DNA of 64,000 nt from Candidatus Aenigmatarchaeota archaeon (lineage in GTDB: Archaea; Aenigmatarchaeota; Aenigmatarchaeia; QMZP01; QMZT01). The stretch is from NCBI GenBank assembly GCA_963726265.1, contig CAVSBQ010000002.1:448001-512000 (forward strand), written 5' to 3'. Made by a program: the position numbers. Positions 33,001 through 36,000 of this stretch are shown piece after piece. Numbering within the stretch: position 1 is the first letter of the stretch; each line of letters starts with the position of its first letter.

Positions 33001-36000
33001 TCAGGTCAAGACAGTGGGGATGTCGTTAAGCCATTCATGCAGGTCGACAATTAATCGACAAGGGATTACGCTACCTTAAGACGGTCAGAGTTACCGCCGC
33101 CGTTTACCGGGGCTTGGCTGGTTTTGGCCAGTTTAACACACCGGCACTGGGCAGGCATCAGGAGCTATACAAAGCGTTTCCACCTAGCAGCCCCCTACGT
33201 TTTTGTTAAACAGTCGCAACCCCCTTGTTACTGAGACCTACTCGTTCTGTCTGAGACAGAGGAGTAGGCACCCCTTATACCGAAGGTACAGGGCCAATTT
33301 GCCGAATTCCTTGACCTGACTTCTCCTAATACACCTTCGCCTTTTCAGCGAGGGGCACCAGTGACGGTTCTCGGTACGGTCATGAAAGATCCATTCAGAT
33401 TCCCTTTTCACCGATTCCAGGAGTCAACCGAACGGACATACGCCCGCTATTTCTGGTTTCGCCTGCTTCTCACCATTACGGTACTCCACAGGTTTCGCCA
33501 GTTAATCACCGAAGTGATCGGCATATCCCAAAATGTCAGGAATCAGACTTGTGTCGCCACACGTACTTCCATGGTGCAGGAATATTAACCTGCTTCCCTT
33601 TCGATAAGTTCCAGTTGGGGCTTGTCTTAGGACCGACTAACCCTCAGATGACGACCATTGCTGAGGAACCCTTGCCCTTTAGGTGGTGGAGTGTCTCACT
33701 CCACTATTGTTGCTACTATCAGCAAGATCCTTGTTCCTGTAAGGTCCATTCCCTCTTACGAAGAAACTTCTGCCCTACCAGGACACCTCTCTACCATAAT
33801 CCTTTCGGAATCTAAGATATCGGTACCAAACTTAGTCCCGTCCATTTTCAAGGCCCTCAACCTAGATAGGTGAGCTATTACGCTTTCTTTGAAGGGTGGC
33901 TGCTTCTAAGCCGACCTCCCTATTGTCTATGGGTGAAGACGCTTTTCATCACTTAGCTTGGATTTAGGGACCTTAATCTTAGGCTGGGTTCTTGCCCTTT
34001 CGGATACTGAGCTTACCCCAGTACCCCCACTCCGGCCTTCTACGGAGGATGGTAGATTCCGAGTTTGACAGTGCAACTGAACCTTTCGGTTCTTGGTTGC
34101 CCAATCAGTATCTATACCCTGCCATCTTCCTCCGGCCAGGCTATGCTGAGGCATATTTCGAGAGGAACCAGCTATTGCTGAACGCGATTAGCATTTCACT
34201 CCTAGCCCCAGGTCACGTGAGCGATTTGAATCTCAGCATCTCTATCGGGCCTCCATCTAGCTTTCGCCAGACTTCACCCTGCCAAGGGCTAGATCGTCCA
34301 GCTTCAGGTCTTACCCCTGTGACTTTAGGCTCTTTCAAACCTGACCGCCTGACGGCACAAAGCCGATGCGCGGTTCTTGCTTTCGCTGCGGGTACTTGAA
34401 TTACCCTCGCCACAGAAATAAACTCCTTGCCGCGTGTTTCCGCACGGGCGACAAAACTCCTGCAAGCAGGAGCCTTGCCTACCTATAATTACATGGTTTC
34501 AGGCTCTTTTCATCTCCGGTTAGAGATACTTTTCATTTTTCCGTCACCGTACTAGTGCGCTATCGGACTCGGGGTGTATTTAGGATTGGGAGTTACTGGC
34601 TCCCGTATTCCCAATGGATTTTCAACCAATGGTACTCTGGATACCCGCTATCAACCTTCTTCCTTGCTCATACGGGGCTATCACCCTCTACGGCAGATCT
34701 TTCCAGATCACTTTTGATTGAGAAGTTAGGCTGAGCACGGGTCCGAACCCCACATCTCTCCTGGCTTTCACCAAGAGATTCGGTTTGTCCTTTTCCCTTT
34801 TCAATCGCCTCTACTAGGGGAATCACGATTGTTTTCTTTTCCGGCCCTTACTAAGATGTTTCAATTTAGGGCGTCACCGATGACCCGAAGGTCAACGACA
34901 TATGTCAGGAAGTCCCATTAGGAGATCCCGGGTTCAAAGGCTGCTTGCGCCTACCCCGGGCATATCGCAGCTTGCCACGTCCTTCTTCGGCCCCCGAACC
35001 AAACCATCCACCACGTAACGTAGCAGATCCTTTTTGTCAGGACAACTCGCCTATGTTTCATCATCAAGGAACTCAAATGGTGTTCACTTTTTCATAGAAA
35101 GCGAAAGACGCAAGCTCGCGCATGCGTCTGTCTGCCTCCTCAAGTGACTGTCTGAAGAGTCATCATTCCTCTCCAATCCACCCGCCAAAATTTATTGGCG
35201 AGCTTCATATACCGACATGCAGAATTGCATCGCCGCATACCGGTTTCTTTGTAATTTGGTTAACATGAACTAGCTACCAATAGCTTGTTCAGAATAAGAC
35301 AGACATACTCGCGTACGCCACCCTCTGACTGCATGACCTCTTTCCCTGTCACGGATCAAAGGCCAAGTCTCTGAACAGCTTTGGATAGCCATTGTTAGGA
35401 AACGTATTGCATCACTGCAAGTTTCCGTAAGCGTGAGCAACTATTATATTGTCCCGGGACATTTAAATACATTTCTGGGCCAGTTTTCAGTTGCCGTTTC
35501 TTGCTTTCGTTTTCCGCTAATTCCGCTTCAGCGGAATCTTAAGCCTTTTTTTAAAAGGCTTTTATGGACCGAGTGGGAATTCCACGCCCGCCCAAGCCGA
35601 CCGTTGCGGGTTCGTGTTGGGCGAGGTTTTGAACCCACGGCCTCTCGCTTGCAAAGCGAGCGATCTGTGGCGATTGAAGCAGACCTCGTCTGCTTCACCT
35701 TAATTACCGCTGATCTATCGGCCCATGCGTTTCGAAGGATGCAGAATCTCATTCTGCATCGGTTTGTTAGATGTGATTTCGCAGGAGATTGTATTGAGAA
35801 AGCGAGATATATATAAGGAGGTGATCCAGCCGCACGTTCCCGTACGGCTACCTTGTTTATCGGATAGTGAGATGATAATTTGCACTATTTTGGCAATTAG
35901 AGCTGCACATATATAGCTGTCATAAGAAACCTTTTGGGTTTCCTCAATTTGCCCATCTCACCGTCTTACGACTTAGCCCTCCTTGCAAAGCTCTGGTTCG

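Follow-up and report, generated by a model that had tools for sequence, protein, structure and literature searches.

The 16S-23S rRNA spacer of a Candidatus Aenigmatarchaeota genome (1.13 Mb, 88% complete) carries a complete box C/D sRNA, one of whose guides would direct methylation of U2552 in the A-loop of the adjoining 23S rRNA. Very probably, this sRNA is a bipartite guide residing in the 23S leader of the pre-rRNA and constitutes the RlmE-free route of the Aenigmatarchaeota to Um2552. It occupies positions 35066-35171 on the minus strand of the window, that is, of the whole 64,000-nt stretch of DNA analysed, and lies 5' of the 23S processing stem. A first-pass annotation had placed a double C/D sRNA at 35055..35165; the sRNA is real, but that interval cuts one base off box C, leaves out the closing stem and includes a third C-like box. 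Its location in the 16S-23S spacer just 5' of the processing stem is borne out, all elements being present in the minus-strand sequence, and the statement that the pre-rRNA encodes its own guide holds as a description of location. The elements of the locus are as follows; the numbering of rRNA positions follows the E. coli structure.

35816-37373, minus: 16S gene (Rfam)
35177..35208, minus: upstream K-turn-like hairpin of the spacer scaffold (by eye)
35172..35175, minus: outer D-like box TGGA of the spacer scaffold, putative K-turn partner of 35064-35058 (by eye)
35160..35166, minus: box C, ATGATGA (from the sequence; TGA column conserved in alignment A1)
35144..35159, minus: guide 1 (D' guide), exchangeable among relatives, N+5 on C1920, mismatch at +6
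35140..35143, minus: box D', TTGA (from the sequence)
35096..35137, minus: variable hairpin between D' and C', 42 nt (predicted fold)
35089..35095, minus: box C', ATGAAAA (TGA invariant, 10/10 rows of alignment A1)
35079..35087, minus: guide 2 (D guide), GTGAACACC, antisense to 23S 2550-2558, N+5 = U2552
35073..35076, minus: box D, TTGA (constant two-base gap from the guide; register control)
35066..35072, minus: closing stem 3' arm, pairing with 35171-35166 (GAGGAA/TTCCTT; predicted fold)
35058..35064, minus: outer C-like box ATGATGA, directly 5' of the processing stem, also in guide-less lineages and other DPANN
35029..35053, minus: 23S processing stem 5' strand with canonical BHB (sequence, fold)
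31934-35035, minus: 23S gene (Rfam)
33079..33087, minus: likely target of guide 1, helix 69, C1920 at 33084 (duplex energy; E. coli numbering)
32297..32305, minus: target of guide 2, helix 92 A-loop, U2552 at 32303
31916..31941, minus: 23S processing stem 3' strand with BHB (sequence, fold)

The boxes C, D', C' and D are found in the order expected of an archaeal box C/D sRNA, with the GA dinucleotides for two K-turns. Positions 1-2 of D', as read from the sequence, pair A-U and A-U with positions 6-5 of C', and the TTGA of the D boxes and the ATGAAAA of C' compensate each other. The closing stem shows compensating changes among relatives (by eye), and the hairpin between D' and C' ranges in them from about 5 to 60 nt. 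Positions 1-2 of box D are often non-consensus. Box D is separated from the processing stem by 20 nt. No Rfam family matched the sRNA at its gathering score, the best match having an E of 0.13 and 19.7 of 45 bits. Every box is located on the 5' side of the 23S stem, and no conserved D box was seen by eye in the 23S trailers, so that the element is not of the ligated-spacer (16S-D) type; for the same reason the upstream D-like box was preferred as partner of the outer C-like box, and a partner in the trailer was discarded. The guide is located in the spacer, outside the processing stem and not within a BHB intron, so that it is not an intron self-guide of the tRNA-Trp type either.

Guide 2 pairs with the A-loop at 9/9 positions with a duplex energy of -16.0 kcal/mol and has U2552 (32303) at N+5; the numbering of the A-loop agrees with published papers, the first loop base being U2552, followed by G2553, U2554 and U2555. 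The 9-mer followed by GA occurs twice in the host genome, and the C'-guide-D pattern once in its 1.13 Mb. The guide is constant in the family of the host, being present in 13/13 loci (10/10 in the first-pass annotation), and pairing, covariation and register all agree with the earlier assignment of N+5 to U2552. The duplex measures 9 bp here and 7-9 bp in relatives; guides of 10-12 nt are described in PMC7994747 for archaeal C/D sRNAs, as a typical rather than a strict feature. The second guide slot apart, the sRNA has every sequence property of box C/D RNAs that was looked at, save duplex length.

The phylum was represented by 371 genomes, 173 of which gave a 23S-start match, and 110 leaders were read: that of the host genome, those of 29 relatives from its order and 80 hand-picked across families from the listed matches. 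The genome's own A-loop was assembled in 87 of the 110, and 85 were scored after dropping G326, whose leader is cut by a contig end (the last seven bases of the guide and box D are present), and G188 (L130), which has U2552 but is guide-less, shows another A-loop type and comes from a bin of 1.7 Mb in which the 23S was matched twice; its 23S gene is probably a contaminant. The bin of G036 (L063), like that of G188, contains a 23S gene of a different type, and both are likely contaminants. A guide was called when its seven bases +3 to +9 faced the genome's own A-loop with no more than one non-Watson-Crick pair and the box D read NNGA or GCTA. By this rule, which was loosened after the data had been seen (to admit GCTA as box D, which concerns 3 of the 69 leaders, and to tolerate an A without a partner at +3), an in-register guide is present in 69/69 leaders with U2552 and in 0/16 with A or G at this position. 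When the register was shifted by -2, -1, +1 or +2, 2, 1, 0 and 3 matches were obtained, against 69 in register, and shuffled leaders passed the rule in 1.7% of the trials. The genome-unique pattern, the low shuffle rate and the collapse of matches out of register argue that the guide is not a product of chance. An unbiased N+5 scan of all GA boxes against all 23S positions also put U2552 at the top, with 62 genomes, followed by position 2600 (17), position 1920 (9) and other sites with 9 or fewer.

Among the 23 leaders whose A-loop was not assembled, 19 have the guide; the four guide-less ones belong to G054, to G169 (doubtful anchor, A-loop absent) and to two members of a purine-2552 family. 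In the G054 leader (L050) the guide sequence GTGAACCCC is shifted by one base from the usual register, its GA box being nearer by the same amount; it may aim at G2553 instead, or may match an altered A-loop. Taken over the phylum, the predicted guide is conserved in most of the Aenigmatarchaeota.

The covariation of guide and target had been left open by the first-pass annotation, and it is found at positions 2555, 2554 and 1920, the first two of which are C in other clades. Position 2555 pairs with guide position +8 in every case (69/69), as U-A in 45 genomes and as C-G in 24. Position 2554 pairs with +7 in 64/69 (59 U-A, 5 C-G); the mismatches are a C-A in three genomes (G127, G185 and G190), where the guide did not follow, and two U-C cells, which are probably earlier one-mismatch or chance matches that the script picked. 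When 105 of the 110 loci were placed on a 23S tree (built with FastTree and rooted at the midpoint, its deep nodes being weak), the joint change of 2555 and guide was seen to arise twice, in G104 and in the f17/18/21/22 clade (support 0.997), and a change at 2554 was followed by the guide in G146 and in an f22 subclade. At position 1920, which faces guide position +5, the guide reads GACGATCA in families f37-39, which have U1920, and GACGGTCA in C1920 lineages.

Loss of the guide accompanies the loss of U2552. The A-loop methylation had been called universal, a description that fails here: 16/85 scored genomes, of families f27, f28, f30, f31 and f40 plus G086 (loci L147-L158, L170-L173 and L112), have A or G in place of the near-universal U at 2552 and are guide-less. 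These purines appear in three places of the tree, namely in f27/28/30/31 (support 1.0), in f40 and in G086, a single genome nested with support 1.0 among the guide-bearing f7-14. The Fisher P of 1e-17 for the coupling of guide and U2552 is overstated, since kin are not independent; counted as independent events there are three losses and about five compensatory changes. A search for a relocated guide for A2552 in 44 f27 genomes gave 2 matches, against 5 with the reversed-pattern control.

The proteins required for the proposed activity, fibrillarin, Nop5 and L7Ae, are encoded in the host genome, and fibrillarin is present in 343/371 genomes of the phylum. The absence of RlmE/FtsJ noted in the first pass was confirmed, zero matches being obtained in the 88%-complete host genome with the FtsJ-family and rrmJ models; the SpoU family gave zero as well, which covers the RlmR/SPOUT route. 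PF01728 was rejected as a test for RlmE, its weak matches in 51/61 relatives (39 bits at best) being generic methyltransferases, and for this reason the rrmJ model (TIGR00438) is the better one. The latter detects 2/371 genomes at E<=1e-20, with 229 bits, below its cut-off of 300. Both genes are found in family f40, in G354 (L176) and G355 (L175); an A-loop match was not found in these two genomes, and the sampled f40 members have G2552. Transfer or a changed substrate would be possible explanations for these rrmJ-like genes. Mutual exclusion of guide and RlmE was discarded as a general rule, as the guide-less lineages are mostly devoid of RlmE too; the loss of RlmE extends over the whole phylum and, taken alone, fails to distinguish lineages with the guide from those lacking it.

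The other guide was less clear in the host. In agreement with the first-pass annotation, its N+5 falls on C1920 (33084), and a 1920 guide is recognisable in 10/13 loci of the family, but in this genome it is weak: it forms 8 pairs with an A-C mismatch at +6, beside the target, and its duplex (-11.9 kcal/mol) is closely approached by those with two rival 23S targets (-10.6 and -10.0). Within the family the 1920 guide is unbroken in 4/13 loci; it is broken at +6 in three, those of the host's genus, and at the target base in another three. The position of the mismatch beside the target makes this half of the sRNA doubtful in the host genome, and the C1920 guide appears clearly real in relatives only. 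The host's guide 1 probably descends from a C1920 guide and would be weak or decaying. Whether it could still methylate C1920 is close to an even question, leaning slightly towards no.

In the relatives this slot holds diverse guides. The 1920 guide of f7/f11, which have C1920, reads GACGGTC, and in these families and in f37-39 the order is reversed, the U2552 guide standing at D' and the 1920 guide at D. A P-loop guide with N+5 on G2251 is present in 8/20 f5 loci and in G086, while guides to helix 93 (2601 or 2600) are found in some f5 loci and in f18/21/22 and follow the local variant of the target (G038 vs G325). Several lineages have a single-guide form, and the f21/f22 leaders (L131, L133, L135-L141, L144 and L146) contain two tandem C/D sRNAs before the 23S gene. 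As far as the sequences tell, the partner slot is a free, exchangeable module (1920, G2251, 2600/2601), and the guides swap places between clades.

The structure that houses the sRNA is more widespread than the guide itself. By eye, guide-less Aenigmatarchaeota, Nanoarchaeota and Micrarchaeota retain the upstream hairpin together with both outer boxes, D-like and C-like, and a short hairpin between these two; the sRNA fills the loop of the short hairpin in most guide-bearing families and lies upstream of the scaffold in f18. A clean guide was absent from 117 other archaeal leaders, comprising 62 obtained from 80 loci, mostly of Halobacteria and Thermoproteota (18 were skipped as short or not 23S), 25 of the Nanoarchaeota phylum and 30, out of 49 matches, of the Micrarchaeota phylum. 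One-mismatch matches numbered 4, 2 and 1 in these sets of 62, 25 and 30, about the shuffle rate, and in L308 of this screen a GAACACC stands six bases 5' of a GA box, out of register. Because the scaffold is present in guide-less DPANN and no clean guide was found in the 117 leaders, we infer that the spacer scaffold is old and that the guide is a phylum-level addition. An exact-pattern scan (guide, box D and 23S start) of 185,579 species genomes rendered 21 loci, 14 of them assigned to Aenigmatarchaeota or uncultured archaeon, one to a Nanoarchaeota archaeon, five to bacteria and one to a Nitrososphaeraceae, this last not being a 23S start. When the canonical-loop guide was searched for as an exact pattern at 45-75 nt on the 5' side of a 23S start, 4 matches came up, bacterial and due to chance. 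Many families show no 16S end within roughly 0.9 kb upstream, and an AT-rich promoter-like stretch precedes the sRNA; it would seem that a split of the operon leaves the guide with the 23S gene, longer spacers being also possible.

Additional minus-strand features were observed around the rRNA genes. A second conserved structured RNA, with a long closing stem and a GTGACA loop, is located at 35280-35385, with a TATA-like TTTAAAT at 35467-35461; its motif occurs in 11/110 leaders, across f1, f2, f5, f27 and f30, and had zero Rfam matches. Identification as 5S, SRP or RNase P RNA was discarded, each of these being located elsewhere, the RNase P RNA at 30341-30672, 1.3 kb downstream of the 23S gene (81.2 bits, just under the cut-off of 84). 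A tRNA-Ala(UGC)-like gene, apparently with two introns, was read by eye at 35565-35724 and had been missed by ARAGORN, and a BHB-type intron lies near the 16S 3' end, at about 35860-35965. The 23S gene itself has a BHB intron of 159 nt in the helix 89 region (32377-32535), within which 14 nt (16 nt in two relatives of the genus) are perfectly complementary to the processing stem's 5' strand and its BHB; following the antisense there is a D'-hairpin-C' motif, for which a target search gave no convincing result.

According to the mechanism that we propose, the sRNA would be transcribed together with the pre-rRNA, as its position suggests, within the loop of a spacer helix flanked by K-turn-like boxes that would be much older than the guide. 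L7Ae would bind the C/D and C'/D' K-turns and Nop5-fibrillarin would then load, as in the established C/D mechanism; guide 2 would pair with the still unfolded helix 92, and fibrillarin would methylate the ribose of U2552. As the guide covers both loop and stem bases, methylation would take place while helix 92 is open. Cleavage at the neighbouring BHB, with trimming or spacer ligation, would free the sRNA, which would thus be made one-to-one with its substrate. Of 24 RNA runs listed, none contained half of the sequence words searched for, and in the four runs that were mapped, coverage of the sRNA consisted of one low-depth contig of a relative, reaching into its 3' end. The RNP would more likely than not act in trans, or both in cis and in trans; action in cis is plausible in that the leader is kept by the processing stem close to the 23S 3' end. 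A more speculative extension, on the unlikely side, is that the leader is a tethered cis-acting cassette, in which the processing stem would keep the guide RNP next to domain V of its own transcript and A-loop methylation would be linked with cleavage at the BHB, serving as a quality check; the ancient K-turn scaffold would be a docking site where guides come, go and are exchanged, and guide loss would be tied to a purine 2552 no longer needing the methyl group.

It could also be considered that the element is a folding or processing chaperone, whose antisense would hold helix 92 open or bring domain V to the stem while the boxes only recruit L7Ae. The adjoining BHB and the short guide duplex would suit such a role, roles of this kind are discussed in PMC3608112, and a C/D-like structure of undetermined function is predicted in ligated archaeal spacers according to PMC7038931. 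A chaperone, however, needs no constant distance to box D, contrary to the 0-3 matches in shifted registers against 69; it should covary with a changed 2552 instead of vanishing, and the guide is kept in 0/16 such genomes, with the search in f27 (2/44, and 5 control matches) lending no support to a relocation; and the N+5 positions of the partner guides coincide with further known hot spots of methylation, G2251 among them. We regard this explanation as improbable.

Still less probable is that a free-standing sRNA gene with its own transcript is merely situated in the spacer, a reading that would alter the biogenesis of the sRNA and leave its target unchanged. The TATA-like sequence within the spacer would be compatible with it, as would the close position of the sRNA behind the AT-rich promoter-like stretch in several families, but the 20 nt from box D to the processing stem contain no terminator-like break, the conserved leader helix closes around the sRNA, and an upstream promoter would drive the 23S gene as well. 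As to chance complementarity inside an ordinary K-turn scaffold of archaeal rRNA spacers, which the presence of the scaffold boxes without guides in other DPANN and the second genomic copy of the 9-mer with GA might suggest, the shuffle rate, the covariation and the coupled loss speak against it, and the covariation counts refute it, so that its probability is negligible. A guide encoded in the 23S leader is thus the reading that we retain.

This reading would imply that genome-reduced archaea keep a methylation of the catalytic centre without RlmE, the precursor supplying the guide at 1:1. The coincidence of purine 2552 and guide loss amounts to a three-fold natural experiment that bears on the purpose of Um2552, and the natural A-loop variants named here could be used in the E. 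coli ribosome. It also follows from the locus that DPANN rRNA operon spacers contain unannotated RNA genes missed by Rfam.

With regard to known systems, a C/D-like element, reported by Tang in 2002, is said to flank the 16S stem of archaeal pre-rRNA, without an assigned target or function. Both that element and ours are C/D-like motifs in pre-rRNA spacers by BHB stems; the one described here is at the 23S stem and has a complete guide with covarying targets. That ligated archaeal spacers may adopt such a structure is mentioned in PMC7038931, citing Tang 2002, as a matter of undetermined function in 2020, and the present sRNA offers a concrete candidate job for it. In full-text searches, which covered few subscription papers, no archaeal rRNA spacer was found described as carrying a methylation guide.

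The nearest precedent is the sRNA in the intron of pre-tRNA-Trp (Haloferax, Pyrococcus sR50; PMC7994747, PMC7714728), which shares with ours a guide within the precursor of its own target and release at a BHB, the latter presumed here. That guide sits in a tRNA intron with its target 100 nt away and, to judge from a cited title, acts in trans, whereas ours sits in an rRNA spacer with its target at 2,780 nt. Um2552 is also made by the stand-alone enzymes RlmE/RrmJ (COG0293) and RlmR (SPOUT) and by yeast snR52-Nop1, where the snoRNA is independently encoded (PMC12123411), in contrast with a guide encoded in the spacer. Among archaea, U2552 is predicted to be sRNA-guided in five of those examined in Dennis 2015 (PMC4644070), and the Um2552 C/D sRNAs described there and in PMC7994747 have in common with the present one the C-guide-D'-C'-guide-D arrangement, the N+5 rule, the target U2552 and the same encoded proteins. 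The guides are shorter here (7-9 bp) and the hairpin between D' and C' is long; moreover, the known archaeal C/D sRNAs described in these sources are intergenic, overlap mRNAs, follow tRNAs or reside in tRNA introns, while this one is placed in an rRNA spacer. The guide type is therefore a known one, and what would be new is its genomic housing in the spacer that forms the 23S leader.
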